A stretch of 64,000 nucleotides of DNA from an uncultured Spirochaetota bacterium (lineage in GTDB: Bacteria > Spirochaetota > Spirochaetia > SZUA-6 > Fen-1364), in contig CAVTER010000015.1 of assembly GCA_963733835.1 (NCBI GenBank), forward strand, positions 561,988-625,987. Reading direction: 5' to 3'. Position numbers and translations under genes: made by a program. Shown in pieces: positions 5,092-57,645 of the stretch (the first letter of the stretch is position 1; every line of letters starts with the position of its first letter). Under the pieces are notes generated by a model. That model ran no database searches. It saw nothing but the letters and a program-made list of their open reading frames with translations, and was not told the DNA's origin.

Positions 5092-5104
5092 GGCAGGGGC
5101 CTGC

Positions 5105-5587: not shown

Positions 5588-6213
5588 GCTCTTTCCCCCA
5601 GAAGGCGCGCCTTCAGGATCTTCTGCACGAAAAAGACCTCCCGCTCCCTCTCTTCCAGGACCCCCTCGATGAAAGCACGGATGTCCTCGACGTCGGGGAT
5701 CACGATCTTCTCGAGGGCGTTGACCCTGCGCTGGGTCTTGCGCACCTCCTTGGCCAGGCGCCAGACCATGGTGCGGATCTCGGCCATCCGCGCGATGAGC
5801 TTCAGCAGCTCGAAGAACTCGACCATCGTCGCGTCGCAGGTTCCCGATGTCCCCATGAAAGAGTACTTCAGCTCCATGCGGGGCACCTGCATGTCGATTG
5901 TCGGCAGCGGGATGCCCATGAGCCGTCCCTGCTTCTCCCGGACCGTGAACTCGAAGCGGATCCCCTCGCTGATCTCCGCGGCGGACTGCCGGCCCACCTG
6001 CACGATCATCCGCCGCAGCGACCCGTACGCCGTGGCCACCCGCCGGTCGAGGTCCCGTTCCAGCAGCTTCACCTGCTCGACCATGCGCATGAGCTCCATC
6101 ACGAGGATCTCCCGCTTCTGCTCCAGCAGGTCGAATCCCTCGCGCGCGATGGCCAGCTGCTCCTTGACGGCGAAAAGGGCCGACTTTGTCGGGGGAACGT
6201 CAGAGCGGGGCAT
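5584..6213 (-). CDS. atpD: V-type ATP synthase subunit D
   Basis: Coiled-coil D-subunit-like sequence (…LLEQKREILVMELMRM…). The start is set at the internal Met (MPRSDVPPTK) at 6213, 8 nt after the atpB stop. Confidence 0.8.
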   Translation of the reverse strand: MPRSDVPPTKSALFAVKEQLAIAREGFDLLEQKREILVMELMRMVEQVKLLERDLDRRVATAYGSLRRMIVQVGRQSAAEISEGIRFEFTVREKQGRLMGIPLPTIDMQVPRMELKYSFMGTSGTCDATMVEFFELLKLIARMAEIRTMVWRLAKEVRKTQRRVNALEKIVIPDVEDIRAFIEGVLEEREREVFFVQKILKARLLGERA

Positions 6214-6220
6214 GCCGCGC

Positions 6221-9390: not shown

Positions 9391-9397
9391 GAGGCTC

Positions 9398-10027
9398 TCA
9401 CTGTCCCTTCCCGCCGCCCAGGAGCGCGGCGACGAGCTCCTCGCGCCGTTCCTCGAGCAGCCGCGCTGCAAGCTCGTCGAGAGTCGCGCGGCAGCGGATA
9501 CGGCCGTCGACTGTCGCCACGACAACGCCGCGCGAGGCTGCCCCCCCGAGGGGTCCAGGGCCCGCGGCATCCTCGTGCACGTCCTCGACAACAGCCCGGG
9601 GAAGTGCCGCCTCGACAATCCCGCGCGCGGCGCCGGCATCGATGCCCCGCCAGCCCACCGACACGCGCGCTTCCCCGAAGGCCTGTGCCGCCCTGGACAG
9701 CAGCGCGCCGAGTACCCGGGCCAGCTCCGCGGGGCTCAGCGCCGCGAACAGCTCGTCGAGCGCTCCGCGCAGTGCTTCCTCGGTCGCCGACAGGCGCGTG
9801 CGCATGAAGTCCAGCGGCAGCGAGGATTCCAGCTCCTGCCGCAGGCCGCGGACCTTCTCCTCCGCCTCTGCCGCGATGCGTCCGCCATCGTCGCGTCGCT
9901 TCGCCTCCCACTGGGCTGCGATCGACCGGGCGTCCTTCTCCGCGGCCTCGAGGATGCGGCTGGCCTTCCTGCGCGCGTCCTCCAGGATCTGCTGTTCCAG
10001 CGTTTCGCTGGTCTTCAGGATCTCCAC
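9398..10027 (-). CDS. atpE: V-type ATP synthase subunit E
   Basis: 209 aa charged coiled-coil N-terminus typical of subunit E. Confidence 0.7.
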
Positions 10028-10039
10028 CTGCCCCCTCCC

Positions 10040-10345
10040 CTAGACGTGGACGCCCACCGCTTCGCGGATCGCGTCGACGAGGCCGCGCCTGTTCTCGAGG
10101 TGGCCCTCGATGCCGGGGATCTCGACGACCAGGGGGTAGGAGCCGCTGAGCTGCCACTCCATCACCAGGTCCGCGATCATCGCGGAAACCTGCTCCGTGA
10201 TGATCAGCACCCGGGCCGCCCCGGACGAGGTCGCCCGTCGGAAGGCCTCCTCGGCCTCGGGCTTCGAATACACGGCAGTGCCCGGCACGCCGACGAAACG
10301 GAAGCCGATGACCAGCTCCTCGTCGCCGATGACGGTGAACTCCAC
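10040..10345 (-). CDS. atpF: V-type ATP synthase subunit F
   Basis: 101 aa (MEFTVIGDEELVIGFRFVG…), typical F subunit. Confidence 0.75.
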   Translation of the reverse strand: MEFTVIGDEELVIGFRFVGVPGTAVYSKPEAEEAFRRATSSGAARVLIITEQVSAMIADLVMEWQLSGSYPLVVEIPGIEGHLENRRGLVDAIREAVGVHV

Positions 10346-10361
10346 GCGGGACTCCGCGGCC

Positions 10362-10667
10362 CTATGCCGCCGAGAGGATCATCAGCGCCACGATGAACCC
10401 CCAGAGGCAGATGCCCTCGGCCATGCCGACGAAGGGCAGCGCCTTCCCCGACAGCTCGGGGTTCTCGCTCATCGCGGCCATGGCCGCCGCGCCGATCTGG
10501 CCCACGGCGATGCCGCCGCCCAGCGTGGCAAGACCCACGGCGATCGCGGCGGCGATGTACTTGATCGTCGGCGCGGTGGCGGCCGCGGGTGCCGCGGCCT
10601 GGGCAAACAGGGCGGGAGCGGCGCATGCCACCAGCAGCGCCGCGGACAGGAACAGTCTCTTCTTCAC
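10362..10667 (-). CDS. atpK: V-type ATP synthase subunit K (proteolipid)
   Basis: About 101 aa, two hydrophobic helices with a Gly/Ala-rich motif (IAVGLATLGGGIAVGQIGAAA). GTG start with a GGGAGG RBS. Confidence 0.8.
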   Translation of the reverse strand: MKKRLFLSAALLVACAAPALFAQAAAPAAATAPTIKYIAAAIAVGLATLGGGIAVGQIGAAAMAAMSENPELSGKALPFVGMAEGICLWGFIVALMILSAA

Positions 10668-12697
10668 CTCGTACCTCCCGAATGCAGCTTGAACGGCTTG
10701 AACTCTTCCCCCGACTCCACGAAGAACTTGGAGAAGAACTCGTAGTACTCCAGCCTGACCACCTGGATGGTCACGATGAGTCCCTCGAGCAGGATGATGA
10801 TCGCGTTGCCCACGAGGATGATGGCGATGCGGCCGGCGATCCCGCCGGGGGCGCTGCCCACCATGCCGGCGAGCAGGAACACGATGCCGCTGAGAACCGT
10901 GTGCGCGAGGGCGAAGGCGGCCACGCGCAGGAAGCTCACCGAGTTGGACACGTAGTAGATCGCCGATTCCATGAGCTCGACGATCCCTTCCATCACGAAC
11001 CCGAAGACCCCGTCCTTCAGGAGCGGCCTCTTGCCGCCGGCCAGCCGGGCGATCGGCTCGCGGAAGAACAGGACCAGCAGGGGGAACGCAACGAGGGCCA
11101 CGTCCACCCCGTGCAGCCGGCCTCCGAAGACCAGCCGCACGGCGATGGACAGCACGTACCAGAAGAAGAACGCCCCCGCGAGGCCCGTCTTCGACAGCAG
11201 CGCGCGTTCCCAGTTGCGCATGCGCACGTTGTTTATCATGTTGATCACGAGGCCCACCGAGTTGATGACGGCGCCGATCGCCAGCGTGACCCCGAAGAAC
11301 AGGGTGATCTTCTGGAAACCGCCGAGCTCGATGATCCTGTCGACGGGGCGCCCGGTGAGGACCCCTGTCACCCAGCGGACCACGGGCACGAGAAGCTCCT
11401 CGTTGGCGAACACGGAGCCGTAGAGGAACCCCGAGACCATGCAGGCAATCCCCACCACCACGAACACCGTCCCGAAGTTCTTGCGCCGGTAGGTCTCGAA
11501 GGATTTCACCCGCCCGCTTCCGATGAGCAGGCCCACGACAAGGCCCACGAATCCCTGGCCCACGTCCCCGAACATGATGGCAAACAGGACCACGAACATG
11601 ACGGCGACGAAGGGGGTCGGGTCGATCGTCCCGTACAACGGCACGCTGTACGAGAAGACCATCCGCTCGAAGGAGCGCACGATGCGCCCGTGCGCGACAG
11701 ACACCGGCACCCGGGTCTTCCCCGAACGCACGTCGGGCAGCTCTTCCGGCTCGTAGGAGCGGATCGCGACACGGCCCTGGGTGATCTGCTCGAGGCCCGC
11801 CACGACTTCCTTGAACCTTCGGCGGGGGACCCAGCCGCTCACGCGCTGCACGCTTCCCGTCGCAGCCAGGCCCTGTTTGACCGCGTCGATGGACACGTCC
11901 AGGTCCAGCTCGTACAGCAGGGCGCGCACCTCCGCCTCGCGCAGGTCGCGGAAGCGCCTCTTCTCTGCGTCGATGCCGGCGAGCAGGTCGTCCACCTCGG
12001 CGAGCCTCCCCTGCACGGACGGGAGCACCTCCGCGGGAATCCCCTTCAGGTCGGCGGGAAAGGCGGCCTCCTGGAAAGCGAACTTCTTCAGCTCCGTGTC
12101 CAGCGCCCAGCGGCCCTTCTTCGGGGCGATGGCCATGAGGAAGCCGGGCCTGCCCAGCGGGACGATGAGCGCGCGCTTCTCCAGCAGGAGGCGCAGCTCC
12201 TCCATCCGTCCCGGTGCGATGGTGCCCAGCCGGAAGCTGAGGTAGGTCAGGTGCTCCAGCTCCGTGAAAGCGACCTTGAGATGCGCGAAGGCGGACAGCT
12301 CGTCGACCGTCTGCTTGAGGCTCAGCCGCTGCTGCAGCAGCTCGCCCTCCGTCCCGACCAGGTCCTTCAGCTCCTCGATCAGCGAGTTGGCCCTGTCGCG
12401 GAGGGCGTCGCGCGAGGGGGCGGGGGCCGCGGGAACGGCCGGGGCTCCCGCCCCGGTCGAGGCAGGCGGGGCCGCCTCCGTGCGCGGCCCCGGGCCGATG
12501 CCGAGGAAGCGGGCCAGGGCGTCGACCTTGCCCTTCAGGTCCGCGATCTCCCGCTCCTCGGCGGTGAGCTCGCGCTGCTCTTTCGTGTCCGCGATGAGCT
12601 GCACGCACCCGGCAAAGCCGAGGTAGCGCAGCACGTCGTCGACGTCCCGCTTCAGCACGAGGAGCTCCAGCTTCTTCATCCGCTCTGTGGAAAACAT
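10664..12697 (-). CDS. atpI: V-type ATP synthase subunit I (116 kDa a-subunit)
   Basis: 677 aa with a hydrophilic N-half and a polytopic C-half. GTGA overlap with atpK. Confidence 0.85.
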   Translation of the reverse strand: MFSTERMKKLELLVLKRDVDDVLRYLGFAGCVQLIADTKEQRELTAEEREIADLKGKVDALARFLGIGPGPRTEAAPPASTGAGAPAVPAAPAPSRDALRDRANSLIEELKDLVGTEGELLQQRLSLKQTVDELSAFAHLKVAFTELEHLTYLSFRLGTIAPGRMEELRLLLEKRALIVPLGRPGFLMAIAPKKGRWALDTELKKFAFQEAAFPADLKGIPAEVLPSVQGRLAEVDDLLAGIDAEKRRFRDLREAEVRALLYELDLDVSIDAVKQGLAATGSVQRVSGWVPRRRFKEVVAGLEQITQGRVAIRSYEPEELPDVRSGKTRVPVSVAHGRIVRSFERMVFSYSVPLYGTIDPTPFVAVMFVVLFAIMFGDVGQGFVGLVVGLLIGSGRVKSFETYRRKNFGTVFVVVGIACMVSGFLYGSVFANEELLVPVVRWVTGVLTGRPVDRIIELGGFQKITLFFGVTLAIGAVINSVGLVINMINNVRMRNWERALLSKTGLAGAFFFWYVLSIAVRLVFGGRLHGVDVALVAFPLLVLFFREPIARLAGGKRPLLKDGVFGFVMEGIVELMESAIYYVSNSVSFLRVAAFALAHTVLSGIVFLLAGMVGSAPGGIAGRIAIILVGNAIIILLEGLIVTIQVVRLEYYEFFSKFFVESGEEFKPFKLHSGGTR

Positions 12698-12698
12698 C

Positions 12699-13739
12699 TC
12701 ACTGCGCTCCCACGAGGGCGAGGACGTCCTGCTCGCTCACGGAGAGCCGCAGCGCCTCGACGGCGGTGTTCAGGAAGGCGACCTCGTATTTCTTGAGCTT
12801 GAAGAACGCCACCAGGGGGGTCAGCGTGAAAGGATCCTGGTGGAACAGGTGGTGGGCCTTCGCGTACAGCCGACGCGTCGCCTTCTGCTCGGCACGGACC
12901 GGGTCCGGCGCCTTGAACGACTCGCTGAGCTGGTCCTCCACCAGCCAGCCGAAGCGCCACTTCCGCCAGCCCTCGATAGAGTCGGCGGGTATGTCGAAAG
13001 CCTGCTCCACGGCGCGACGGTCCGCGTCCAGGAGACCCGGCACGAGCAGCTCGCGCGCCTTCTCGGCGTCAAGGCCGAAGGCAAAACGCAGCCGCAGCGC
13101 CCAGACGGCGTCGGCCAGCGCGATCTCCATCCCCACGAGGCGCGATACACCCGCACGGTCTTTCCGAGGCAGCGCCCGGGTGAGCTCGAGAAGGCGGCGG
13201 TAGTACTGCTGGTCGATCATGTTCTCGACCCTGGCAGCCGGGGTCGTGGCGAGGAGCGGGACAACCCACGCGTAGGGGGTTGCCTCCAGGGCCTCCACGG
13301 ACCCGATAGACGCGAAGTCCACGGTGCCGTAGCGGCCGAGGTCCGGGGCAAGGGCCCCGACCTGCCCGCCGCGGGGACCGGACGAGGCAGCCATCGGCTG
13401 CCCCTCCCCGACCCGCGGAAGGGCCGCGGTCCGCAGGAGCGATTTCACGCCCTGGTACTCGAAGGAGCGCAGGATGTGCACCAGGATCTCCGGCGGGTCG
13501 CCGAGGCTGTCCAGGACGTAGGTCATGGAGGCGATCCCTGCCTGCGCGACGCGCGTCTCCAGGTCGGCCGTGAGCTGGTGCTCGGGCTTCTCCGCCCTCT
13601 CGCCGGGGAACAGCCTGTCGTACAGGTCCTGGACCTTGCGCAGGCGCAGGATGTCGCGGAAATTGGCGCCCACGTAGGTGCGGGCGAGCATCCCGTAGAT
13701 CTTCGCGAGGATGAAGGAATAGCGGAAAGTGCGGATCAT
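12699..13739 (-). CDS. atpC: V-type ATP synthase subunit C (V0 d-like)
   Basis: 346 aa with similarity pattern to the V-ATPase C/AC39 family. Confidence 0.7.
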   Translation of the reverse strand: MIRTFRYSFILAKIYGMLARTYVGANFRDILRLRKVQDLYDRLFPGERAEKPEHQLTADLETRVAQAGIASMTYVLDSLGDPPEILVHILRSFEYQGVKSLLRTAALPRVGEGQPMAASSGPRGGQVGALAPDLGRYGTVDFASIGSVEALEATPYAWVVPLLATTPAARVENMIDQQYYRRLLELTRALPRKDRAGVSRLVGMEIALADAVWALRLRFAFGLDAEKARELLVPGLLDADRRAVEQAFDIPADSIEGWRKWRFGWLVEDQLSESFKAPDPVRAEQKATRRLYAKAHHLFHQDPFTLTPLVAFFKLKKYEVAFLNTAVEALRLSVSEQDVLALVGAQ

Positions 13740-14041
13740 CGAAGGCCCTTGTCGACGAAATCCATCACGACCCGTCGAAGGGCCTCCCTGTCCCGGGGCC
13801 GGGATGACAGGCTCTCCCGGAAAGCGCGGTTCTTCTCGTCCCGCTCGGCCGCGATCCTTTCCCTCTCGGCTGCCACGCGGGCCGCCGCCTCGGTCGCGGC
13901 CGTCTTCAGCGCCTCGCCGTGGCGGACCTGCGCGTCGGCCTGCGCGGCTGCGCGGCGGCGCCCCGCCTCGGTCTCCGCGCTGGCCACCAGCACCGATGCG
14001 TCTTTCTCGACGCCCAGAAGCCTCTCGAGGATGTCGGACAT
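13736..14041 (-). CDS. V-type ATPase small coiled-coil subunit (G/H-like)
   Basis: 101 aa Ala/Arg/Glu-rich coiled coil, first gene of the operon. Confidence 0.5.
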   Translation of the reverse strand: MSDILERLLGVEKDASVLVASAETEAGRRRAAAQADAQVRHGEALKTAATEAAARVAAERERIAAERDEKNRAFRESLSSRPRDREALRRVVMDFVDKGLR

Positions 14042-14051
14042 GGCCCCTCCC

Positions 14052-14534
14052 CTACGCGTCCTGGGAGTCCAGGACCTCCTCGAAGGAGCGGATGACCTTG
14101 CTGACCTTGTCCGGCCCGTCGGCCTTCATGACCTGCCCGTAGAAATCGGGGCTCTCGACCAGCAGGGCGATCTTCTTCAGCACGGCCAGATGCGACCCCG
14201 CATCTTCCTCGGAGCTCACCAGGAGGAACAGCAGGTGCACGGGCTCCCCGTCCAGGCTCTCGTAGTCGATGCCCTGCGGCGAGATGCCGAGCACGCCGAT
14301 CACCCCCTTCGTGAAGGGCGTCTTGGCGTGCGGTATCGCGATGCCCCTCTTGATGCCTGTCGACATCTTCTCTTCCCGGCGGCGGATCGCCTCCAGGATG
14401 GCGTCGCGGCTGTCGAGTCCGTACTGCGACACCAGCAGGTCGACCAGCTCCTCGAAGACCTCCGCCTTGTCCTCCGCCTCCAGGCGGCACTTGATGCGGG
14501 AGGGGGCAAAGAGGTCCTGGAGCCGCAGGGCCAC
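14052..14534 (-). CDS. ptsN: PTS EIIA (fructose/nitrogen type, PtsN-like) regulatory protein
   Basis: 160 aa. EIIA-2 fold with the conserved His region (GIAIPHAKT). Confidence 0.65.
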   Translation of the reverse strand: MALRLQDLFAPSRIKCRLEAEDKAEVFEELVDLLVSQYGLDSRDAILEAIRRREEKMSTGIKRGIAIPHAKTPFTKGVIGVLGISPQGIDYESLDGEPVHLLFLLVSSEEDAGSHLAVLKKIALLVESPDFYGQVMKADGPDKVSKVIRSFEEVLDSQDA

Positions 14535-14909
14535 TTACTGGCCTCCGGCCTGCTGCGCCGGCTCGGGCTGGGGGGCCTGCTCTGCCGCCGGAGCAGGGGT
14601 CTGCACCCACCAGTCCTGGCTCGTCGTCGTCTGCAGCTGCTGTTCACGCGCCTTGCCGATGACGTTGCCGGACTCGGGAGTACGGTTCAGCCATGCGAGC
14701 ACGAACGCGCACACCAGGAACACGGCGGCGAGCCCTGCCGTGAGCCGCGTGAGCACGTTCCCCGCCCGCGAGCCGAACGGCGTCGTGCTGCCGCCGCCGA
14801 AGATGCCCCCGACACCCTCCCCGCTCTCGTCCTGGATCAGCACCAGGAGCACGAGGAGCACCGCGCTCAGCACCAGCGCGACGAGAATCACGATTGCGAT
14901 CGCAGACAT
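14535..14909 (-). CDS. secG: Preprotein translocase subunit SecG
   Basis: 124 aa. Two TM segments and a Gly-rich loop (GGIFGGGSTTPFGS), in the classic pgk-tpiA-secG context. Confidence 0.8.
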   Translation of the reverse strand: MSAIAIVILVALVLSAVLLVLLVLIQDESGEGVGGIFGGGSTTPFGSRAGNVLTRLTAGLAAVFLVCAFVLAWLNRTPESGNVIGKAREQQLQTTTSQDWWVQTPAPAAEQAPQPEPAQQAGGQ

Positions 14910-26068: not shown

Positions 26069-28916
26069 GCGGGGGGCGCCCCCTTCCCGTTTCGCAGCGC
26101 CTTTCGCAGGTATCGGCCCGTGTACGACCGCTCGGCGCGCGCCACCTGCTCGGGGGTGCCCTCGGCCACGATCCTCCCCGCCCCCGTCGCCGCCCTCGGG
26201 CCCGAGGTCGATCACCCAGTCGGCGCACTTGATCACGTCGAGGTTGTGCTCGATCAGCACCACGGTGTTGCCGTTGTCCACGAGGCAGCTGCAGCACCTC
26301 CATGAGCTTCTTCACGTCGGCGAAGTGCAGCCCCGTGGTGGGCTCGTCCAGGATGTAGAAGGTGCGCCCCGTGCTGCGCCGCGAGAGCTCGAGGGACAGC
26401 TTGACCCGCTGCGCCTCCCCGCCCGAGAGGGTCAGCGCGGACTGGCCGAGCTTGACGTAGCCCAGGCCGACCTCCGACAGGGTCTTCAGCTTCCCCGCGA
26501 TCGGGGGGATCGCACGGAAGAAGGCGAGGCCCTCCTCGACCGTCATTTCGAGGACCTCGTGGATGTTCCTGCCCTTGTACCGCACCTCCAGGGTCTCGCG
26601 GTTGTAGCGCCTGCCCTTGCAGACGTCGCAGGTGATGTACACGTCGGGCAGGAAGTGCATCTCGATGCGGATGGTGCCGGCCCCGTCGCAGTTCTCGCAC
26701 CTGCCGCCCTTCACGTTGAAGGAGAACCGCCCCGACTTGTAGCCCCGCGCGCGATTCGGGCAGCTGGGCGTAGAGCGTCGCGCAGCGGGGCGAACATGCC
26801 GACGTAGGTGGCAGGGTTCGAGCGGGGCGTGCGGCCGATGGCGGCCTGGTCGATGTTGATGACCTTGTCGATCTGCTCTGCGCCCTCCAGGCCCGCGAAG
26901 CTGCCCTCGGGCAGGCGGCTGCGCATGATCCTGTTGGAGAGAGCCGGGAACAGGAGGTCCGAGAGCAGCGTCGACTTGCCCGACCCCGACACGCCCGTGA
27001 TCGCTGTGAGCGTCCCCAGCGGGAAGCGCACGTCGATGCCCTTGAGGTTGTGCTCCGCCGCCCCGCGCAGGGTGAGCCAGCTCCCGCTGCCCGGCCTTCG
27101 CGCGGCGGGCTTGGGGATCGCGAGACTTCCGCAGAGGAACTGACCGGTGAGCGACTTCGGGTTCGCCGCGACCTCCTCGGGCGTGCCCTCCGCCACCACG
27201 TGGCCCCCGTGCACGCCGGCCCCCGGGCCCAGGTCGACGATGTGGTCGGCGGTGCGCAGCGTCTGCTCGTCGTGCTCCACGACGATCAGCGTGTTGCCCG
27301 CGTCGCGCAGGCGCGTGAGGGTCTCGATCAGCATGGCGTTGTCGCGCTGGTGCAGCCCGATGGTCGGCTCGTCGAGGATGTACAGCACGCCGACCAGGGA
27401 CGAGCCGATCTGCGTGGCCAGGCGGATGCGCTGCGCCTCGCCGCCCGAGAGCGTGGACGCCTTCCGCTCCAGGGTGACGTACGACGAGCCCGACGTTGCG
27501 CAGGAACGCCAGGCGGGACTGGATCTCCTCAGGACCTGGCGCGCGATCTTCTGTGCCGTCGGCTCCAGTGCAAGCCCGTCGAGGAAGGCGAGCCCCTCGT
27601 CCACCGACAGCCGGGCCAGGTCGTGGATGTTCTTCCCGCCCACGGTGACGGCGAGCACCTCCGGCTTCAGTCGCTTCCCGCCGCAGGCAGCGCAGACCGT
27701 CTGCGTCATGAACCCTTCCAGCCACTCCTTCACCTGCTCGGAGCTGGACTCCAGGTAGCGGCGCTTCAGCTCGTTCAGCACCCCGCGGAAGCCCGACTCG
27801 TATTCCCACTTTCCCCGCCCGTCCCTGCTCACGTAGCGGAAGTCGATCTTCTCGCTCGTGCCGTTGAGCAGCGCCTCGAGAACTCCCGGGGGAAGGTCGC
27901 CCAGGGGCGTGTCGAGAGTGAAGCCGAAATGACGGGCGAGGGCCTCGAACTGGCTGCGGTACCAGTTGGCCTGCGGGTTGTAGGGCGCTATCCCGCCCTC
28001 GTTGAACGACAGGCCGAGGTCGGGGATGACGAGGTCGGGGTCGAAGTCGAGCGTCATGCCCAGCCCCGTGCACGAGGGGCAGGCCCCGAAGGGGTTGTTG
28101 AACGAGAACAGGCGCGGCTGCAACTCGGGCACGCTGATGCCGCAGACGGGGCAGCTGCTCTTCTGGGAGAACAGCAGCTCACGCTCTCCTTCCCTGTCTT
28201 TCACGAGCGCGACGAGAGTTCCGCCGGACGACGTCCAGGGCAGCCTCGACGGATTCGGAGAGGCGCCTGCGCAGCGTCGGGGGCCACGGTGAGCCGGTCC
28301 ACCACGACCTCGATGGAGTGCGTGCGCTTCTTGTCGAGGCTGATGGGCTCGTCGAGCGTCCGCACCTCGCCGTCCACGCGCACACGCACGTAGCCCAGCC
28401 GGCGCGCGTCGTCGAGGACCTTCTGGTGCTCGCCCTTCTTCCCGACCACGACGGGGGCGAGAAGCGAGAGCTTCGTCCCGGCCGGTAGCACGAGCAGCGC
28501 ATCGACGATCTGGTCGACCGACTGCTCCTGGATCTCCCTGCCGCACTGCGGGCAGTGCGGGATGCCCACCCGGGCGAACAGGAGACGCAGGTAGTCGTAG
28601 ATCTCGGTCACCGTGCCCACGGTGGAGCGCGGGTTCCTGTGCGTCGTCTTCTGCTCGATCGCGATGGCGGGCGACAGCCCCTCGATGGAGTCGACGTCGG
28701 GCTTGTCCAGCCTGCCGAGGAACTGCCGCGCGTAGGCCGAGAGCGACTCCACGTAGCGCCGCTGACCCTCGGCGAAGACGTGTCGAACGCGAGGGACGAC
28801 TTGCCCGATCCGCTGAGCCCCGACACCACGACCAGGGCGTCGCGCGGGATCTCGAGGTCGATGTTCTTGAGATTGTGCTCGCGGGCTCCCCGGATGATGA
28901 TGCTCTTCACGCGCAC
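26065..28916 (-). CDS. uvrA: Excinuclease ABC subunit UvrA; at least 5 frameshifts
   Basis: N-terminus [46 protein letters not shown], zinc-finger blocks, both ABC modules, C-terminus [10 protein letters not shown]… The sequence spreads over 6 ORFs in alternating frames. The reconstructed stop is at 26065. Confidence 0.85.
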
Positions 28917-29034
28917 GCTCCCGTCGAACGGGCGCGCGGCAGCCGCACGGGGAGTGGCACCTGCTGGGGGTCCGCGCTGTTCATCGCGCCATAGTAGCGG
29001 CGGGGACTGGCCGTGTCAGCCCCATCGAACACCG

Positions 29035-37264: not shown

Positions 37265-38044
37265 TCAGGCCCGGACCAGCAGCACCGCGAGCAGGCACAC
37301 CGCCGACAGCCCCGCCGCGACCGCGAGGTCCGCCGCGAGGGCGCCCCCCCTCTTCAGCTCGGCGAAGGAGCTGCGCGGGTTGGGTCGGCCGAACCCCCGG
37401 GACTCGAGCACCATCGCGAGCACGGGAATGCCCTTGACGGCCTGGATGAGTACCGAGGTCAGGATGGGCAGGAAAGTCTTTGCCGCCCCCCGCCATGCGT
37501 GTCGGGCCCCCGAGGCAGGCCCGCAGCGCAGCCTGTGCGCGTCCTGGACATTCCTGTAGGTGGAGGCGAGAGACGGGAGGGAGCGGAACGCGATGATCAC
37601 CACCAGGCACGCCGAGTAGGGCAGGCCGAACCACCGCAGCGCGAGCACGAGGTCGTCGAGCTCGATGCTGCGGAAGGCGGCAAAGAAGGCGAGGCTGATG
37701 CCCCCGAAGCGCAGGATCATGGCCAGGGCAGCACGCAGCCCGCCGCCGGTCACCAGGGCGAAACCCCGCACGGCGAGCAGCACCGTGCCGCTCCTGTGGA
37801 ACAACGGCGTGAGAAGCGCGATCAGGATCAGCACTGGCAGGATCGGCCGCAGCGGCACCGTGAGCTCTGACGGGCCGAACGCCGCCCCGATGACACCCAG
37901 GAGAAACGCGACGAGGCAGGCGCTCACGACGACGGGAGCGGGGATCAGGAGGCTCACTGTCACCGGTGCGAGGAGGAGGAGCTTCGCGCGCGGATCGAAC
38001 CTGTGCAGGAAGCTCGTTCCCGGTTTGAAGAAATCCACCGCCAC
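37265..38044 (-). CDS. ecfT: ECF transporter transmembrane (T) component EcfT
   Basis: C-terminal section of ORF 37265-39517 (…FLHRFDPRAKLLLL… CbiQ-like). GTG start overlapping the ATPase stop. Confidence 0.65.
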   Translation of the reverse strand: MAVDFFKPGTSFLHRFDPRAKLLLLAPVTVSLLIPAPVVVSACLVAFLLGVIGAAFGPSELTVPLRPILPVLILIALLTPLFHRSGTVLLAVRGFALVTGGGLRAALAMILRFGGISLAFFAAFRSIELDDLVLALRWFGLPYSACLVVIIAFRSLPSLASTYRNVQDAHRLRCGPASGARHAWRGAAKTFLPILTSVLIQAVKGIPVLAMVLESRGFGRPNPRSSFAELKRGGALAADLAVAAGLSAVCLLAVLLVRA

Positions 38045-39517
38045 TACGGACCCACCCCGTGCGGGGAAGCAGGGGAGACGGAGTCCCCGACCAGCCGCCC
38101 GCCCTCCATCGACACCACACGGTCGCAGACACCGGCGGCGTACTGCGCGTCGTGCGTGATGAGCAGGACACACGGGATGCGCGCGCACAGCTCGCGCGTC
38201 AGGTCCGCGAGCTCCCGGAATGACAGTCCCGAATCCACCTCGTCGAGAATCAGCATGTCCCGTTCGAGAAGCCAGTACGTCGCGGCCTGCAGCCGTCGGC
38301 GCGCGCCGTAGCTCATGAGCGCCGGGCTGTGCCAGAAGATCGGGAAGCGCAAAAAGCCGTGCTGCCTCCCGGACGAGGTCCTCAGCCTCGCGCCTGCCGA
38401 CCCCCCTCATCGCGAGCCCGAGCCCCAGCTCCTCCTGCACCGTGGGCAGGTAGATCTGGTGATCGGGATTCTGGAACAGGTAGCCGATCCTCCTGTTGAG
38501 CTCCTCGCCCCTGGCCGGGCGGAACCCTCCCCCGTCGTTGAGGGCGACCACGCCCGCTCGTGGGGTGAGCAGTCCGCAGAGCACCTTCCCGAGTGTCGAC
38601 TTCCCCGACCCGTTGGGTCCCACCAGGCCGCACACCGTGCCTTTCTCGACCACGAGGCTTTCCACATCGAGGGTGAAGCCATCGGAGTCGGGGAAGCTGT
38701 ACCGGATTCCCTCCGCCTTCAGGAATGGATCGCCGGCTGGCCTGGGGCCGCGCGCCGCTCTCTGGCCTGCACCGACAGCGATGCCATGCTCGCGCAGCCC
38801 CGAGCGCAGCTGGTCCGTGACCGGGCGACCCGAGACAGAGGAGACGGTGCCGGCAGACAGGATTCCGAAGCTGTCGCCCCTCTCTTCGAGCAGGGCTGCC
38901 CACCGGGAGTCAAGCACGAGGGTGGTCCGGCCCCTGTCGCGCAGGATGTCCATGATCCGGACCTTCCAGTCCGCATCCAGCTCTTCGAGGGACTCGTCCA
39001 GTACCCAGACGGCTGGATCGATCGCGGCAAGGCAGGCGAGGAGCAGCCGCTTCTTCTCCCCGCCCGAGAGAGTCGAGGGGTTTCTCTTCGTGAACGCCGC
39101 CAGGCCGACAAGCCGGAGGCTCTCCTCGATTCTGCGGGCGATCTCACCGCGCGGCACCCCGAGGGATTCCAGGGCGAAGGCGACCTCCGTGTCGCAGCGC
39201 GTCGTGAAGACCTGGCTGTCGGAATCCTGGAACACCAGCCCGATCGCCTCGACGAGATCCCAGGGCTGTGCGGCGCACACGTCGATCGCGCCGCACCGGA
39301 TCGCCCCATCCCGATCCCCGCCTGTGAACCGCGGAACCAGACCCACGAGCATGCGCGACAGGGTGGTCTTCCCGGCGTCGGCCGCCCCGAGGAGCACGCC
39401 GGTCTGCCCTGCATCGATGCGGAAGGTGAGGCCTTCGAACAGGCACCGCGGCGGCTCGTTTCCAAGGGGCGGATATGTGAAGCGCAGCCCGTCGACGCGA
39501 AGATCTGTGCAGATCAT
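38044..39517 (-). CDS. ECF transporter fused tandem ATPase (EcfA-EcfA'); frameshift ~38330
   Basis: Two ABC ATPase modules (Walker A GAADAGKTT and GPNGSGKST, signatures LSGGEKKR and LSYGARRR, Walker B MLILDEV, H-loop ITHD). The last 100 aa are in ORF 38044-38352. Confidence 0.75.
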
Positions 39518-52353: not shown

Positions 52354-52358
52354 TGAAA

Positions 52359-52433
52359 TGGGCGGCACAAGAGTTGAACTTGTGACCCCTAGCGTGTCGA
52401 GCTAGTGCTCTAACCAGACTGAGCTAGCCGCCC
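52359..52433 (-). tRNA. tRNA-Val (anticodon GAC)
   Basis: Hand-folded cloverleaf: acceptor GGGCGGC/GCCGCCC, D-arm GCTC-AGTCTGGTTA-GAGC, anticodon arm CTAGC-UCGACAC-GCTAG, 5-nt variable loop, T-arm ACAAG-TTCAACT-CTTGT, discriminator A. Position 33 is C (unusual). Confidence 0.7.
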
Positions 52434-52529
52434 CGGACGGCAGTCCGACCGTGCCGCAAAAATAGCCAAAGACTCTGCCGCTGTCAAGCCGGCGGCACCT
52501 CCTGTGCCCCTGGCAGGCGCGGCGTCGCC

Positions 52530-52919
52530 TCAGCGCGCCGTGAAGTCCCCCGGCTGGATGAACACGATGGTCGAGGAACCGCGCACGTCCATCGAAAGAA
52601 AGGAGATCGCATCGCGGAACCGCTTCACCTTGTACACGTAGGTGATGGGAGGGTCCAGCCTGCGCAGGGCAGCGTTCGTCGGTTTCCAGGACTCGATGAC
52701 GAAAGTCCAGGTGTCGCCCTTCTCTGTGAGCACGCCGGAGAACACGGCAGTTCCATCAGAGGACTCGCGCTGGAGGCGGAACGCCCCTCGCGAGAAGGAA
52801 AGCGTGTCGGTCAGGTCGGTGCTCTGCCAGCTCCATGCGCGCGTGTACACCGTGCCCGCGCAGGACGCCAGGAGCAGCACGGTCGCGGCAACGGCTGTCA
52901 GCAGGACATTCCTCTTCAT
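52530..52919 (-). CDS. Lipoprotein, hypothetical
   Basis: 129 aa, signal peptide with lipobox LLLASC. Confidence 0.5.
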   Translation of the reverse strand: MKRNVLLTAVAATVLLLASCAGTVYTRAWSWQSTDLTDTLSFSRGAFRLQRESSDGTAVFSGVLTEKGDTWTFVIESWKPTNAALRRLDPPITYVYKVKRFRDAISFLSMDVRGSSTIVFIQPGDFTAR

Positions 52920-53827
52920 CTCTGCACACCTCCCTCTTCACGGGCCCAGGCCTTGCGGACGAGCCGGGCCGGGTCGAGAACGATCACCGCTGAGCCATCC
53001 TCCGCGACCCCTCCCCCGGCCGCCCAGGGGCGGCACTCCCCGCCAGTGCGGACGAGCGTGACGGTGCGCACCCCGCCGTGCTCATCCCCGGCGAGGCACG
53101 CGCGCCTGCGGCCCGCGCGCACGATGACACCCGCCAGCTCGGGCTGGCCAGCCCCTTGCCGCGGCGCGGAGGGCGCGAAAAGGCTCTCCAGGAGAAGCAC
53201 GGGAACTGTCTTCCCGTCGCGCGAGACCGCGGTGCTCCGCCTCACGTTCATGCACTCGACGACCGCGGCGCCGGGAATCCCGTACCACCGTCCCCCCGCC
53301 CGCAGGAGCAGGCAGCGCGACGCCCCCGGGAGAACCGGAACCTTCACCTCGGCGGCCGCCCCGCGGCCGACTTTTCCGCCAACCCTGGCCAGGCGTCGAC
53401 CCGCCTCCTCGACGGCGGCGGCAGCCGACCCGGTCCGCTGCGGCCTGCCGCCTGAGAGCGTGAAGGTCACCCAGTCGTCCTGCTGTCGTGCGTCAAGCGA
53501 CAATTTCGCAGAGCCACGCCGCGCGTTGCGGCCCGGCAGGCGGGCTTCCGCCAGGGCGACCAGCGCAGCGCGGACCTCGCTCACGAGGGAGGAGTCGATC
53601 TCCACGTCCAGCCCCGACACCTCCACCGTCGCGCGGGGCGCGAGCGCACGGGACACCGTGCGGAAGACGGGGCCGACCGGAACGAGCCGCGCGCGCGCGG
53701 CCGCGTCGCGGACCTCGCGGGCCGCACCCGCGCAGGCCGAGGCGGCGTCGGTCACCTGCCGCCCGGCGGAGGCGAGGCCGTCCTGCAGCCGGGCCACGAG
53801 CCCCTCGGCTGCGGCGAACCTTTCCAT
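52916..53827 (-). CDS. CheA-like protein C-terminal portion: dimerisation-like region, degenerate kinase core, CheW-like domain
   Basis: …LVPVGPVFRTVSR…VEVSGLDVEIDSSLV… parallels the CheA P3/P4 junction, but the N-box/G1/G2 ATP-binding motifs are missing. The C-terminal 140 aa are CheW-like. Confidence 0.5.
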   Translation of the reverse strand: MERFAAAEGLVARLQDGLASAGRQVTDAASACAGAAREVRDAAARARLVPVGPVFRTVSRALAPRATVEVSGLDVEIDSSLVSEVRAALVALAEARLPGRNARRGSAKLSLDARQQDDWVTFTLSGGRPQRTGSAAAAVEEAGRRLARVGGKVGRGAAAEVKVPVLPGASRCLLLRAGGRWYGIPGAAVVECMNVRRSTAVSRDGKTVPVLLLESLFAPSAPRQGAGQPELAGVIVRAGRRRACLAGDEHGGVRTVTLVRTGGECRPWAAGGGVAEDGSAVIVLDPARLVRKAWAREEGGVQR

Positions 53828-53864
53828 GACCGAGCGCGCCGCCTCGGTTGCGGCAGCCCCCGAA

Positions 53865-54470
53865 CTACACGGAGTCGAGAAGCCCCGGCATCTCCCGTGC
53901 AGCTGTCGCCATCACCTCGTGAAAGCGCAGGGCAGCCTCGCGCGCCTCCCCGAGGAGGGCGCCGGGCGAACGGGCGCCGGCCGTGAGCGCGGCGGCGGAT
54001 CGCTCCGCCTCCAGGGCTGCCCGGGTCACTGCCTCAAGCCGCGACGGCTGCACCCGCAGCAGCCTGCGTCCCGGCGGAAGCAGGGCGGCGGGCGCTGCCC
54101 GTCCCCGCAGCTCGCCGAGGAGCGCGTTCGCGGCCGTGAGGTCGGCCTCCCCACCCTGCGCGGCGCGCGCCGCAGCGCGTGCCGCCTCGGCGAGCATCAC
54201 CGCGGGCCCTTCGCCCGCCCCCCCGTCCCGCATCGCAGCCGCCGCCTCGCGGATGAGTCCCGCAAGCTCGCCCAGGCCGACCAGGCCTGCCGCCTCGGCC
54301 TCGGCGCGGAGCGAGTGGGCAGTGCGGAACACCTCGTCCAGCGCGTCGACGGGAACGGAGGACCCCCGAAGGCCGTCCGCGTGCGCCGCGAGCGCGTCGG
54401 CGAGCCGGCGGGCCTCCGAGAGGCTCCCCTCGAGGAGGCTCGTGTTCTCGGTATCGAGGTAGTCGCTCAT
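53865..54470 (-). CDS. Hpt (histidine phosphotransfer, CheA P1-like) domain protein
   Basis: 201 aa four-helix Hpt with FRTAHSLRAEAEAAG (phospho-His context). Lies 38 nt upstream of the CheA-like C-portion and may be one gene split by an indel. Confidence 0.5.
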   Translation of the reverse strand: MSDYLDTENTSLLEGSLSEARRLADALAAHADGLRGSSVPVDALDEVFRTAHSLRAEAEAAGLVGLGELAGLIREAAAAMRDGGAGEGPAVMLAEAARAAARAAQGGEADLTAANALLGELRGRAAPAALLPPGRRLLRVQPSRLEAVTRAALEAERSAAALTAGARSPGALLGEAREAALRFHEVMATAAREMPGLLDSV

Positions 54471-54590
54471 CCGAGGGGTATTGTACGCGACCTGCCCTCC
54501 AAGTCAAGGCTGGAGGCTGCGGCGGGGGCGCAGGCCGCCTCCTCGTTGACCACGGCCACCGGTCCCGTGTAGTATGGGCGGCCGAGGGAG

Positions 54591-55310
54591 GTGACTGTGA
54601 GCATCCTCGTGGTCGAGAGTTCCCCGTCGACGCGGGAATCTCTCTGCTACACCCTTCTCTCGTTCGGCGTGAAGGGCATCCCGGCCGCCTCGCGGAGGGC
54701 GGCGTTGGACATGGTCCACGCCACCGCCGACCTCGAGGCAGCAATCATCGACATCGACAACCGCGATGTCGAGGGCTCCGCCCTGGTCGAGGAGCTGCGC
54801 GGCAGCGAGAAGACCCGCGGGATCGCCGTCATCGTCCACACTGTGCAGTCGGGCAAGGACTTCGTCATGACAATGATCGAGTCCGGGGTGGCCGGTTACC
54901 TGCTGAAGCCCTACGATCCCGCCCGGGCACGCGACAAGCTCGGCACAATCCTTTCCAAGCTCGCGACTCATGATGGCCAGAGGAAGCATTTCCGGGTCCG
55001 ACCCGACCCCGACGACCTCGCCCGAGCGCACTTCCGTCTCACCCCCGGGGCACCCCTGTACTCCGGCAGGATCGTCGACGTCAGCCTGGGCGGCATGGCA
55101 ATGGAGCTGCTCACGCCCCCGGCCGAGGGCCTGCTGCAGCCGGGCACCCGCATCCCGCGCCTGGAGTTCGCGCTGGGAGGCAGGGAGCTCGCCCCGCAGG
55201 CCGCTGTGGTGCTGCTCAAGGCGCGGGTTCTTGCCCTGCGCTTCGAGCCCATGGCACCGGCAGACACGAAGTCCCTCGAGAGGTATATTTTCAAGAAGAT
55301 ATCGTCCTGA
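54591..55310 (+). CDS. Response regulator receiver (REC) plus PilZ domain protein
   Basis: N-terminal CheY-like receiver (ILVVESSPSTRE…D…LLKP). C-terminal PilZ motifs (RKHFRV…, DVSLGGMAMEL). Confidence 0.65.
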   Translation: MTVSILVVESSPSTRESLCYTLLSFGVKGIPAASRRAALDMVHATADLEAAIIDIDNRDVEGSALVEELRGSEKTRGIAVIVHTVQSGKDFVMTMIESGVAGYLLKPYDPARARDKLGTILSKLATHDGQRKHFRVRPDPDDLARAHFRLTPGAPLYSGRIVDVSLGGMAMELLTPPAEGLLQPGTRIPRLEFALGGRELAPQAAVVLLKARVLALRFEPMAPADTKSLERYIFKKISS

Positions 55311-55327: not shown

Positions 55328-56455
55328 ATGGCGACACGCGGGCGTTCTGTGGTGCGGGCAACCTGCCTGCTCGTTTTCCTGCTGGCCGCCGGCCTCGCCG
55401 GCGCCGCGAATGTCAACGTCGCTCTGGACCTGCTGACCCACGGGTACTCCAGCTCGGGCTTCAAGCTGCAGAGCGTCGGGCAGATCGACCTGACCGTCGA
55501 CGGCGGGTACAAGTTCGGCGGCCTCATCGGGCTGACCCTCCAGGAGGGCACCAGCCTGGAGTCGCCTACTGCGGCGCTGGATTTTGACAGGGTCAATGTC
55601 GGCATTCGTGACCTTTTCGGACTGCCCCTCGACTTTGCCTTCTTCATCGGGGGAAGCGACGTGCTGGCCCGCGGCGACGCCTTTCCCGCGGTCTTCGGCA
55701 CAGTCCCCATCGGGACAGACTACCGGGGCCTGATGTACTTCCCCGCCATGACCCTCTCGACGGTCTACAACGGGGGCATCCACGCGGTCCGGGGCACGGG
55801 AATCAAGATCGACTTCTACCCGAAGCGCGAGACGACCCGCCTGAGCCTGTACGCGTACGAGGACACGGCCGCCGCCTTCGGCGGGGCTCTTGGGAACTAC
55901 TCGGCTGACCTGCGCTACATGGGGAGCTACGGCGCCCTGGCGGTCGAGGGCTTCGCGGGGTGGACCTTCGCCCCCTCCCTTGCGGCGATGGGCTATTTCC
56001 GCGGCGGCGCCATGGTCCATTTCGAGACCAGGAATATCGAGGTGCTCGCCCAGGCAGGCCTCCCCAAGTACGATCCCGCATCCACGCCGTTCGGGATGGA
56101 GCTCTTCTACCTCCTGTTTGAGCCCAGCCTCCACCTTGGCCAGTTCTCGATCGTCCCGACCTTCTTCTGGCACCCCGCGGCCTACCTGCAGCAGGACAAC
56201 CCGGGCGAGGAAGGGGCCTTCGACGTGAACCTGAACCTCTTCTTCGGCGACCTGGTCAAGACGAGCGTCCGCGCTGGCCTCGAAGGCAACTTCTCCATCC
56301 TGACGTCCACGGGAGTGTTCGAGGTCCACGCCGCCCCCTATGTCGGCTTCACGACGCCGGGGGTCCTCTGGACCGTCCGCCTGAACGCCAGGCTGTGGCC
56401 CTTCGCCTGGGCCGACATGTTCGACGGATTCGTGGGACTGCGCGCCGAACTCTGA
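55328..56455 (+). CDS. Secreted beta-rich protein, probable outer-membrane beta-barrel
   Basis: Signal peptide ending LAGA-ANV, 375 aa with amphipathic beta-strand periodicity and aromatic-rich turns. Confidence 0.4.
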   Translation: MATRGRSVVRATCLLVFLLAAGLAGAANVNVALDLLTHGYSSSGFKLQSVGQIDLTVDGGYKFGGLIGLTLQEGTSLESPTAALDFDRVNVGIRDLFGLPLDFAFFIGGSDVLARGDAFPAVFGTVPIGTDYRGLMYFPAMTLSTVYNGGIHAVRGTGIKIDFYPKRETTRLSLYAYEDTAAAFGGALGNYSADLRYMGSYGALAVEGFAGWTFAPSLAAMGYFRGGAMVHFETRNIEVLAQAGLPKYDPASTPFGMELFYLLFEPSLHLGQFSIVPTFFWHPAAYLQQDNPGEEGAFDVNLNLFFGDLVKTSVRAGLEGNFSILTSTGVFEVHAAPYVGFTTPGVLWTVRLNARLWPFAWADMFDGFVGLRAEL

Positions 56456-56619: not shown

Positions 56620-57645
56620 TTACTTCTTGGGGGCTGCCTCGACGTGCATCTTCTGCTTCTCGAGGTAGCGGAGGACCTGGATGTTGCCCAGGCGCTTGAG
56701 CTCCGCGAGCCTGCGCGCCTCGTAGCGCTTCTGGAGGATGTTCCAGATCGCCTCGTCGTTGATGTCGCGCTCGGTCTCGATGATCGCCTTGTCGTAGGTG
56801 ATCTTGATGTCCTTGATGTAGGTGACGAAGTCGCCGCCCTCCTGCTGGGAGTCCCTGTAGACGATGATTCCCATCAGCTTCAGGTGCGGCGTGCTCTTCG
56901 GGTACAGGGGGTACTTGCGCAGCTCCCTGTTCCTCACCTCGACGACGTAGTTGGGGTTGTTCCACGTGAGAGTCCGCCAGCCGTCGAACTCGAGGTAGTC
57001 CATGAACATGACCTGCTCGTTCCCGTCCTGGTCGGCGACCACGACGCCCAGCCCGTTGGGGAAGTTGGCGCCGTACACGGTGATCGACAGGCTCTTCACG
57101 ACGCCCACGTTCTTGACGACGCCGTAGCCGTTGAACTTCTCGCCCCTGCCGAGGTCCTTTGCGTCCGTCCTGAGCTGGTCGCCCTGGAGGGTCTGCTTGT
57201 CCGCGTAGGCGGGGATGTCGAAGGGCGGCTTGATGATCGCCCACGAGTTGAACGACTCCACCGGGAAGTGGATCCGCACGCCGAGCACCTTCTTGTTGGC
57301 GATCTCCTCGCCGTTGAGGGGCTTGGCCTTCGCGGAGACGGGTGACTCGCGCGTGGTGGTATCGCTCTGGTTTTTCACCGAGCGGGCAGACGATGCGAGG
57401 GTCACTTCCCAGTTGTTGAGGGCCAGGGAGGTCTTCATCGCGGCCTTCTCCTCGTCTGTGAAGGTCGCACCGGCGACGTTGCTGAAATCAACGAGCGTCG
57501 CCGCGTTCTCGGTCGGGACCTTGCTGTTCCCGAGCGCCTGGTCGGCCGCCAGCTTGGTGAAGTCGATGAGCACCGACTCGTCGGCGAACAAGGCAACCCC
57601 TCCGAGGAGAAGCCCGACGACAACGATGAAATACAGCCGCTTCAT
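56620..57645 (-). CDS. flaA: Flagellar filament outer-layer (sheath) protein FlaA-like
   Basis: 341 aa. Signal peptide then ESVLIDF… N-terminal block and overall resemblance to spirochete FlaA family proteins. ATG verified at 57645. Confidence 0.55.
   Translation of the reverse strand: MKRLYFIVVVGLLLGGVALFADESVLIDFTKLAADQALGNSKVPTENAATLVDFSNVAGATFTDEEKAAMKTSLALNNWEVTLASSARSVKNQSDTTTRESPVSAKAKPLNGEEIANKKVLGVRIHFPVESFNSWAIIKPPFDIPAYADKQTLQGDQLRTDAKDLGRGEKFNGYGVVKNVGVVKSLSITVYGANFPNGLGVVVADQDGNEQVMFMDYLEFDGWRTLTWNNPNYVVEVRNRELRKYPLYPKSTPHLKLMGIIVYRDSQQEGGDFVTYIKDIKITYDKAIIETERDINDEAIWNILQKRYEARRLAELKRLGNIQVLRYLEKQKMHVEAAPKK

Follow-up and report, generated by a model that had tools for sequence, protein, structure and literature searches.

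A predicted CheA pseudokinase at the F2-class chemotaxis locus of uncultured Spirochaetia and the erosion of its operon

The core of the chemotaxis kinase CheA consists of a P1 histidine phosphotransfer domain (Hpt), a P3 dimerisation domain, a P4 domain (HATPase_c) and a P5 CheW domain (PMC10782961), and a recent large survey found HATPase_c in every CheA. Berry, Andrianova and Zhulin reported that CheA3 of Rhodobacter sphaeroides hides a degenerate dimerisation domain and a HATPase_c devoid of helices and of the residues that bind Mg and ATP (PMC10782961; PMC3591291). This article describes a comparable protein encoded in a 64,000-nt stretch of contig CAVTER010000015.1 from an uncultured Spirochaetota bacterium, hereafter called the window. 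Its gene, pseudo-cheA, is, as judged from sequence comparison and gene order, the orthologue of the cheA of the F2 class of chemotaxis systems; it encodes a predicted pseudokinase and lies in an operon from which the other che genes have been deleted stepwise in relatives.

Two features are hallmarks of the F2 class in Spirochaetia, namely a neighbouring cheW-cheR-like gene and an extended P3 that is about 50 residues longer, and surveyed genomes never carry more than one CheA-F2 each (PMC7666581). Furthermore, proteins with an Hpt...CheW architecture but no Pfam HATPase_c have been catalogued as recurrent, under the names CheA.XI and CheA.XII, and were read as 'split' CheAs (bioRxiv 10.1101/2022.05.07.491035). 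That catalogue works at the level of Pfam architectures and describes neither a lid-less P4 remnant, nor a spirochaete family, nor any operon erosion.

On the minus strand of the window, pseudo-cheA appears as two open reading frames (ORFs) in different frames, 53865-54470 (201 aa) and 52916-53827 (303 aa), for which the initial annotation had suggested a split by an indel. They are one gene broken by a single inserted base. The whole measures 1555 nt, i.e. 3n+1, and three-frame translation reveals that the extra base is responsible both for the TAG at which the upstream ORF ends and for the change of frame. Both frames meet at 'GTG TAGT TCG' (53870-53861), where DNA alignment finds a single codon in the related loci L002 and L003, and after deletion of one base the frame reads ...LLDSVSSGAAATEAARSVM..., in agreement with the homologues. 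The nearest relatives in the protein collection are single 517-aa proteins that show 75% and 73% identity to the 303-aa ORF and cover the 201-aa ORF too; further intact members count 511, 516, 518 and about 468 aa. The junction is read straight through by homologues of 511-518 aa, an intact ORF of 511-580 aa is present in at least ten relatives, and the protein alignments, which are collinear, show no frameshift in the pseudo-cheA of any other family member.

An assembly error is the probable origin of the split, a point missed by the initial annotation: the window also contains a uvrA whose reading frame shifts at least four times. UvrA retains the two copies of its Walker A, signature and Walker B motifs, but these are dispersed among three frames, and its UvrA_inter and UvrA_DNA-bind domains are located in different ORFs; this fragmentation points to many assembly indel errors or to massive decay. 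Related assemblies display similar defects. Two of them, which contain the loci L006 and L007, are 99.8% identical and differ by one-base indels, one of which lies outside any homopolymer. Their cheW-cheR-like sequence forms one 453-aa gene in L007 (1619-2980) and two genes of 220 and 230 aa in L006 (4745-5407 and 4047-4739), owing to a one-base deletion beside a C-run, and is thus a second indel-split che gene in these assemblies; truncated genes are also present in L002. A real frameshift would mean that the strain makes either two polypeptides, the first with P1 and half of P3, the second with the remaining half, the P4 remnant and P5, or neither of them. The inserted base lies in a context, 'TAGT', that is not a homopolymer, and the 303-aa ORF starts at an ATG that corresponds to a Met conserved among the homologues, two facts that such a mutation would accommodate; however, given the frame changes of uvrA, the indels and truncated genes of sister assemblies and the intactness of every other family member, it is rather unlikely. 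Programmed +1 frameshifting at 'GUG UAG U' was rejected, because tRNA-Val cannot re-pair on UGU, the relatives show no stop or shift and uvrA reveals an error-prone assembly. Placing the insertion in the adjacent G5 run was rejected too, since the in-frame TAG is upstream of that run. Split genes in this assembly should not be taken as biology.

Of the parts that define the CheA core, P1, P3 and P5 are all found in the reconstituted product, whereas a P4 HATPase_c carrying the N, G1, F and G2 boxes is not (Table 1). The CheW-like domain at the end of the 303-aa product, recognised by the initial annotation, reaches 32.1 bits in Pfam (cut-off 23.5). The Hpt of the 201-aa product had been called clean, which is overstated since it scores 16.7 bits, below the Pfam cut-off of 24.6; its identity as a P1 nevertheless stands. 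Indeed, a family profile built from 18 members matches CheA P1 structures (E-values 6e-7 to 4e-6), the phospho-accepting His is invariant in the 18 sequences at 25-29% overall identity, and the predicted fold agrees. The same profile matches Escherichia coli CheA with an E-value of 1.1e-45 in three collinear pieces: P1 (profile 17-134, E. coli CheA 13-131), the end of P3 with the first half of P4 (259-381, E. coli 311-436) and the last part of P4 with P5 (381-534, E. coli 477-644). The second of these pieces bears out the P3-P4 junction noticed earlier. Pfam detects neither H-kinase_dim nor HATPase_c in the window proteins. The profile matches residues 2-129 of the 129 residues of 6y1y, the structure of the P3 of Treponema denticola CheA (E-value 1.1e-8), and P3 counts about 120 residues; the elongated P3 of the F2 class is present.

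The AlphaFold2 model, obtained from one intact member (P0002) and the family alignment, has a mean predicted local distance difference test score (pLDDT) of 82. It comprises five helices over residues 10-125 (P1), a long hairpin made of helices 142-166, 168-202 and 207-260, a small alpha/beta domain and then a beta-rich P5. Its top Foldseek matches in the PDB are CheA P3-P4-P5 structures (8c5v, 1b3q and 6s1k, E-values of about 1e-15), and isolated P4 structures are matched with E-values of about 5e-5.

Table 1. Pseudo-cheA, its predicted domains and other features of the window (positions in the 64,000-nt stretch)
Feature	Coordinates	Strand	Remarks
uvrA	26250-29015	-	in at least five frame segments (Pfam domains and motifs across frames)
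lipoprotein-like gene, 129 aa	52530..52919	-	overlaps the pseudo-cheA stop by 4 nt; N-terminus ...LLLASCAG
pseudo-cheA, whole gene	52916..54470	-	517 codons after removal of one base; order P1, extended P3, lid-less P4 remnant, P5
P5, CheW-like	52934..53323	-	Pfam CheW and profile match to CheA P5
P4 remnant, residues about 261-378	53336..53689	-	Bergerat-type alpha/beta fold without ATP lid
extended P3 hairpin, residues about 137-260	53690..54062	-	spirochaete F2 type
one-base insertion site	53864..53867	-	'TAGT' versus a single codon, mostly Arg, in relatives
P1/Hpt, residues 1-125	54096..54470	-	phospho-accepting His52, codon 54315-54317
divergent intergenic region, 120 bp	54471..54590		sigma-70-like consensus matches back to back
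REC-PilZ response regulator gene, 239 aa	54591..55310	+	REC about 54603-54935, PilZ about 54978-55292
375-aa gene	55328..56455	+	signal peptide; downstream of REC-PilZ
flaA, flagellar filament sheath protein	56620..57645	-	Pfam FlaA, 252 bits

Compared with the canonical 820-aa CheA encoded at the syntenic position in relatives, pseudo-CheA is devoid of two segments, residues 159-359 (201 aa, P2 and linkers) and residues 593-634 (42 aa, the ATP lid). All eight pseudo-CheAs compared at the DNA level carry these same two deletions, which therefore points to a single ancestral event. Alignments to the CheA of E. coli and Thermotoga maritima skip E. coli residues 437-476. In E. coli this segment holds the F box (FAPGFST) together with the G2 box (GRGVGMD), which form the ATP lid, and the length fits the numbering gap exactly. 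In the motif alignment, the N box reads ALAEARLPG in the window protein versus HLVRNSLDHG in E. coli, and the G1 box reads S-GGRP versus DDGAG. The N-box Asn and the ATP lid were found in none of the family members compared, distant ones included, and the N-box His is gone as well. The loss of the G1 box belongs to the window's sub-clade; the distant members P0016, P0018 and L009 retain DDGAG, DDGGG or DDGKG at this position.

P1 has also changed. At the position of Glu70 the distant clade has Gln and the window's clade has Arg, and at that of His67 the family has Arg or Gly (Gly in the window protein), while the syntenic canonical CheA retains H48, K51, GG, H67 and E70. Generic HPt domains carry Gln at the Glu70 position, as does most of the family, and by this analogy the replacement would agree with a change of role, from kinase substrate to relay. 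Globally, these losses characterise the product as a genuine pseudokinase at the level of its sequence, which is predicted to be unable to bind ATP or to autophosphorylate because the ATP lid and the Mg/ATP-binding residues are lost. The initial annotation had proposed just such a CheA-derived core, noting the absence of the N, G1, F and G2 boxes, and had considered that a corrected sequence might turn out to encode an ordinary CheA; correction of the indel does not restore a HATPase_c, and the pseudokinase stands.

An exhaustive HMMER search retrieved further relatives of 540-610 aa, alignable over their entire length at 25-29% identity, in which Pfam recognises only Hpt and CheW, or a sub-threshold HATPase_c; these distant members had been overlooked by a word-indexed protein search with the family alignment. 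The loci of the relatives have the same flanks as the window, i.e. an amidase gene, a Germane-domain gene, flaA, a gene encoding 375-397 aa and a gene encoding a receiver fused to a PilZ domain (REC-PilZ), the latter divergent from the CheA-like gene. Two loci found through the REC-PilZ search, L006 and L007, carry at this very position a canonical 820-aa CheA (Hpt, P2, H-kinase_dim, HATPase_c and CheW), followed by cheW-cheR, cheX, a 146-aa cheY and the 129-aa gene. P0018 matches the CheA of L006 in BLASTP (E-value 1e-43, 28% identity over 534 aa), the alignment is collinear and the N-terminus MSDYLD is common to the canonical CheA and the pseudo-CheAs. Because the loci share their flanks, bordered on one side by flaA, the 375-aa gene and REC-PilZ and on the opposite side by the 129-aa gene, pseudo-cheA qualifies as the positional orthologue of the spirochaete F2-class cheA. 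This had escaped the initial annotation: the gene is the F2 cheA orthologue in an eroding operon and not an extra scaffold.

Beside the full operon of L006 and L007, relatives display various states of erosion in the region that faces REC-PilZ. Pseudo-cheA is followed by cheW-cheR, with neither cheX nor cheY, in L009 and L005, and by a 362-aa gene, at the contig end, in L004. It stands alone in L011, adjoins a transposase gene in L008 and is accompanied by the 129-aa gene in the window, in L002, in L003 and in the contigs of P0002 and P0003. L010 has no che gene at all, REC-PilZ abutting a NusG_II gene. The cheW-cheR-like gene lies directly downstream in L005, L009 and the canonical L007, and is not found beside pseudo-cheA in the window, L002, L003, L008 or L011; REC-PilZ, the 375-397-aa gene and flaA are present in every erosion state. 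By this comparison of gene orders, cheW-cheR, cheX and cheY have been deleted stepwise across relatives, pseudo-cheA itself being gone in one of them. DDE transposase genes are located just past pseudo-cheA (and cheWR) in L005 (11318-11509) and L008 (4319-5182), and insertion sequences may have contributed to the loss of the distal che genes.

The closest precedent for this pseudokinase is CheA3 of R. sphaeroides (Cereibacter). Both proteins combine an N-terminal Hpt with a phosphorylatable His, a C-terminal CheW-like domain and a cryptic middle, and autophosphorylation is absent from CheA3 (PMC10782961, PMC3591291) and predicted to be absent from the spirochaete protein. However, CheA3 belongs to Alphaproteobacteria, whereas pseudo-CheA originated independently within the F2 class of Spirochaetia. 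CheA3 is a duplicate encoded in the same operon as its partner CheA4, whereas pseudo-cheA is the positional orthologue of cheA itself and has no partner core nearby. CheA3 is also much longer, with extra degenerate Hpt and P2 domains and a phosphatase activity; pseudo-CheA has no P2 and additionally lacks the Glu70 of P1. Among spirochaetes, the CheA2 of T. denticola and Borrelia (F2) shares with pseudo-CheA the extended P3, with the full-length match to 6y1y, as well as a cheW-cheR-like next gene (in the relatives) and a flaA-containing spirochaete context, and the cheA-cheWR-cheX-cheY series of L006 and L007 is the F2 gene set (PMC7666581). Unlike F2 CheA, pseudo-CheA is devoid of P2, of the ATP lid, of the N-box Asn and of a Pfam HATPase_c, and the window's sub-clade also lacks the G1 box, cheWR, cheX and cheY.

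The divergent neighbour was correctly described by the initial annotation as a REC-PilZ protein: Response_reg (38.2 bits) and PilZ (32.2 bits) both exceed their Pfam cut-offs, and the predicted cyclic di-GMP (c-di-GMP)-binding motifs are intact. The relatives start at the equivalent of 54597 (237 aa). All of 20 homologues have E9, D54, T84 and K106 in the receiver; the acidic pair is Glu9-Ser10 in place of Asp-Asp, S10 not being invariant. The PilZ motifs are R131-K-H-F-R135 (RxxxR) and D163-V-S165-L-G-G168 (DxSxxG), in which R131, R135, D163, S165 and G168 are invariant in the same 20 homologues. More than 340 homologues were found, some labelled 'Spirochaetia bacterium'; REC-PilZ proteins thus constitute a large, well-conserved family of uncultured Spirochaetia with an invariant Glu and usually a Ser instead of Asp-Asp. 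PixA of Myxococcus xanthus, which is implicated in motility regulation, also carries a PilZ domain and a receiver in one polypeptide (PMC8316039). The likeness is at the level of domains; PixA belongs to another phylum, and the spirochaete protein has Glu-Ser for the Asp-Asp metal-binding pair. A literature search for CheA pseudokinases or REC-PilZ proteins returned nothing relevant, and no paper describing the spirochaete REC-PilZ family turned up.

The region between both genes contains sigma-70-like matches on the minus strand (54507 to 54480, 10/12) and on the plus strand (54546 to 54575, 9/12), which are consensus matches only; the promoter scan gave five sites in the scanned region versus 0.0 expected from shuffles. 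The minus-strand -10 element, TACAAT, ends 9 nt upstream of the pseudo-cheA ATG, so that the mRNA would be leaderless or nearly so if this promoter match is used.

Selection was estimated by the Nei-Gojobori method from nonsynonymous (dN) and synonymous (dS) divergence between the window and L002, the closest pair compared at the DNA level. For pseudo-cheA, dN is 0.29, dS 1.12 and dN/dS 0.26; the corresponding values are 0.10, 0.68 and 0.15 for REC-PilZ, 0.06, 0.66 and 0.09 for the 375-aa gene and 0.03, 0.36 and 0.08 for flaA. Within the window's sub-clade, the dN/dS of pseudo-cheA ranges from 0.26 to 0.40. Its dS (1.1-2.1) is near saturation, which makes the ratio rough and, if anything, too high. 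ORF integrity was given little weight as evidence of selection, because long spurious ORFs are common at about 70% GC, and a 539-aa ORF indeed lies antisense to pseudo-cheA; collinear protein alignment and dN/dS were used instead. The collinear alignments without frameshifts in every other member, the invariant His, the confident fold prediction and the sigma-70-like consensus match on each strand of the intergenic region go in the same direction as these ratios. Pseudo-cheA is thus best regarded as a gene on which purifying selection is relaxed but real, and which at least one lineage can do without. Its dS is the highest of the four genes, which would fit a pseudokinase gene that is weakly constrained in codon usage or expressed at a low level.

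These data can be combined in the following scenario. In an ancestor of these uncultured Spirochaetia, two segments of the F2 cheA disappeared, one of about 200 aa that comprises P2 and linkers and the 42-aa ATP lid with its F and G2 boxes. Further losses followed lineage by lineage and affected the Asn and His of the N box, Glu70 and His67 in P1 and, in the window's sub-clade, the G1 box. The protein would persist as a non-catalytic dimer held by P3 (P1-P3-P4 remnant-P5), its P5 docking it into receptor/CheW(-CheR) assemblies. The invariant His, if used, would be a plain phosphorelay Hpt site, not charged by its own P4; it might receive its phosphoryl group in trans, either from a different kinase or through back-transfer from a receiver such as that of REC-PilZ. 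We consider this reading, an F2 cheA orthologue in an eroding operon, non-catalytic and retained as a docking scaffold and possible relay, to have a probability of about 0.62. Several points weigh against it. Pseudo-CheA diverges 3-10 times faster than the products of the neighbouring genes (dN 0.29 versus 0.03-0.10), at a near-saturated dS that leaves the estimate of constraint rough, and any function is dispensable because the gene is lost altogether in L010. Glu70 is important for the reactivity of His48 in canonical CheA, so that its loss may mean that the His is not phosphorylated at all. The position of the insertion outside a homopolymer is compatible with a real mutation, and any activity of the protein is a prediction. 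Finally, the genome beyond the visible 64 kb could include an active CheA; no other CheA was found in the 64-kb window, where a tblastn search with the E. coli CheA core was so insensitive that it missed even pseudo-CheA.

Some of these facts could also be read as the slow decay of a functionless remnant of the cheA operon, nearing deletion and already a true pseudogene in this genome. The erosion series, from full operon to pseudo-cheA with cheWR, to pseudo-cheA alone and to nothing, would be its successive stages; the transposases adjoining the gene in L005 and L008, the loss of catalytic residues in both P1 and P4, a dN 3-10 times that of neighbouring genes and the frameshift of the window copy go in the same direction. 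Such a relic is unlikely, however: more than 15 lineages retain collinear, frameshift-free ORFs despite a dS of 1.1-2.1, at which neutral sequence would be unrecognisable, dN/dS stays at 0.26-0.40 in the window's sub-clade, the His and the P5 core are conserved, and the fold is predicted confidently (pLDDT 82). The resemblance to R. sphaeroides CheA3, which likewise has P1, a cryptic degenerate P3/P4 and P5 and works with CheA4 (PMC10782961, PMC3591291), raises another option, in which an active CheA core encoded at a different locus would phosphorylate P1; the protein would then feed a response regulator and might have phosphatase activity as well. Although the P1 His is invariant and the family profile weakly matches the P1 of CheA3 (3kyi, E-value 1e-4), no CheA4-like (P3-P4-P5) gene is located within 6-8 kb in 11 loci or in the 64-kb window, and another residue stands in place of Glu70, on which the phosphorylation of canonical P1 by P4 depends. 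Surveyed genomes, moreover, have at most one CheA-F2 (PMC7666581), and pseudo-cheA occupies that locus. Such a split kinase seems improbable.

The initial annotation had favoured a dedicated module of the pseudokinase and the divergent REC-PilZ, by which the input of chemoreceptors would be linked to a c-di-GMP-dependent control of motility, perhaps that of the periplasmic flagella. The genes are indeed 120 bp apart with promoter-like sites both ways, they are adjacent in every locus that has a CheA or pseudo-CheA, the receiver retains D54, T84 and K106, PilZ retains RxxxR and DxSxxG, and flaA is nearby. This idea does not hold up well, however, and we regard it as hardly probable. REC-PilZ is not a dedicated partner of the pseudokinase, because it is also found beside the canonical cheA operon of L006 and L007, which has its own cheY, and without any CheA neighbour in L010. 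It is also far better conserved than the pseudokinase (59-61% versus 24-28% identity between the window and distant loci), and its acidic pair is Glu-Ser, not Asp-Asp. As inferred from these loci, the adjacency of both genes is ancestral and predates the loss of catalysis, and REC-PilZ is a candidate partner by proximity only.

Other genes around pseudo-cheA also belong to this conserved locus. The 129-aa protein has no Pfam family and shares 50% identity with its counterpart located after cheY in L006 (2684-3073, minus strand); its gene constitutes the conserved last gene of the che operon, kept in the window after deletion of cheWR, cheX and cheY. The 375-aa protein has no Pfam match either and shares 42% identity with its 397-aa counterpart in L006. 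Its gene lies directly downstream of REC-PilZ and beside flaA in 11 of 11 loci (42-90% identity), and the product may be an unrecognised periplasmic or outer-membrane protein associated with motility. As stated in the initial annotation, flaA is 1.3 kb away, counted from the end of the REC-PilZ gene; it occupies the same position across the related loci, serves as a synteny anchor and identifies the host as a spirochaete.

Further away, a tRNA-Val(GAC) gene (52359-52433, minus strand) lies between the 129-aa gene and a NusG_II gene, with a sigma-70-like match at 52487 to 52459 and a terminator-like hairpin followed by a T-run at 52354 to 52335. A 750-aa ORF (37265-39517, minus strand) contains two ABC_tran ATPase stretches and a C-terminal CbiQ transmembrane domain; it looks like an A-A-T fusion of an energy-coupling factor (ECF) transporter or could be an artefact of a lost stop codon. 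A V/A-type ATPase cluster occupies 5100-14900 (minus strand), in which 7618-9639 encodes the A subunit (673 aa) and 10664-12697 the I subunit (677 aa). The Rfam scan of the window gave no matches.

The large survey that found HATPase_c in every CheA gathered only proteins already recognised as CheA, and lid-less descendants were therefore invisible to it. JGI labels pseudo-cheA genes 'chemotaxis protein histidine kinase CheA', an annotation that is unfit because pseudo-CheA fails the defining HATPase_c test. A bolder possibility, to be regarded as a long shot, is that the only F2 CheA of the clade has turned into an ATP-independent phosphorelay scaffold, docking through P5 and the extended P3, whose P1 would exchange phosphoryl groups with REC-PilZ; if so, the state of the receptors would govern a flagellar regulator that responds to c-di-GMP, with no chemotaxis kinase, CheY or CheX involved. 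More generally, the family provides a second, independent case beside R. sphaeroides CheA3, in which the single F2 cheA orthologue has been a pseudokinase for long enough to reach synonymous saturation while its operon was deleted stepwise in different lineages. It offers a natural series in which to ask what remains useful in CheA without catalysis; the P1 His, P3 and P5 would belong to these parts, unlike P2, the lid and Glu70.

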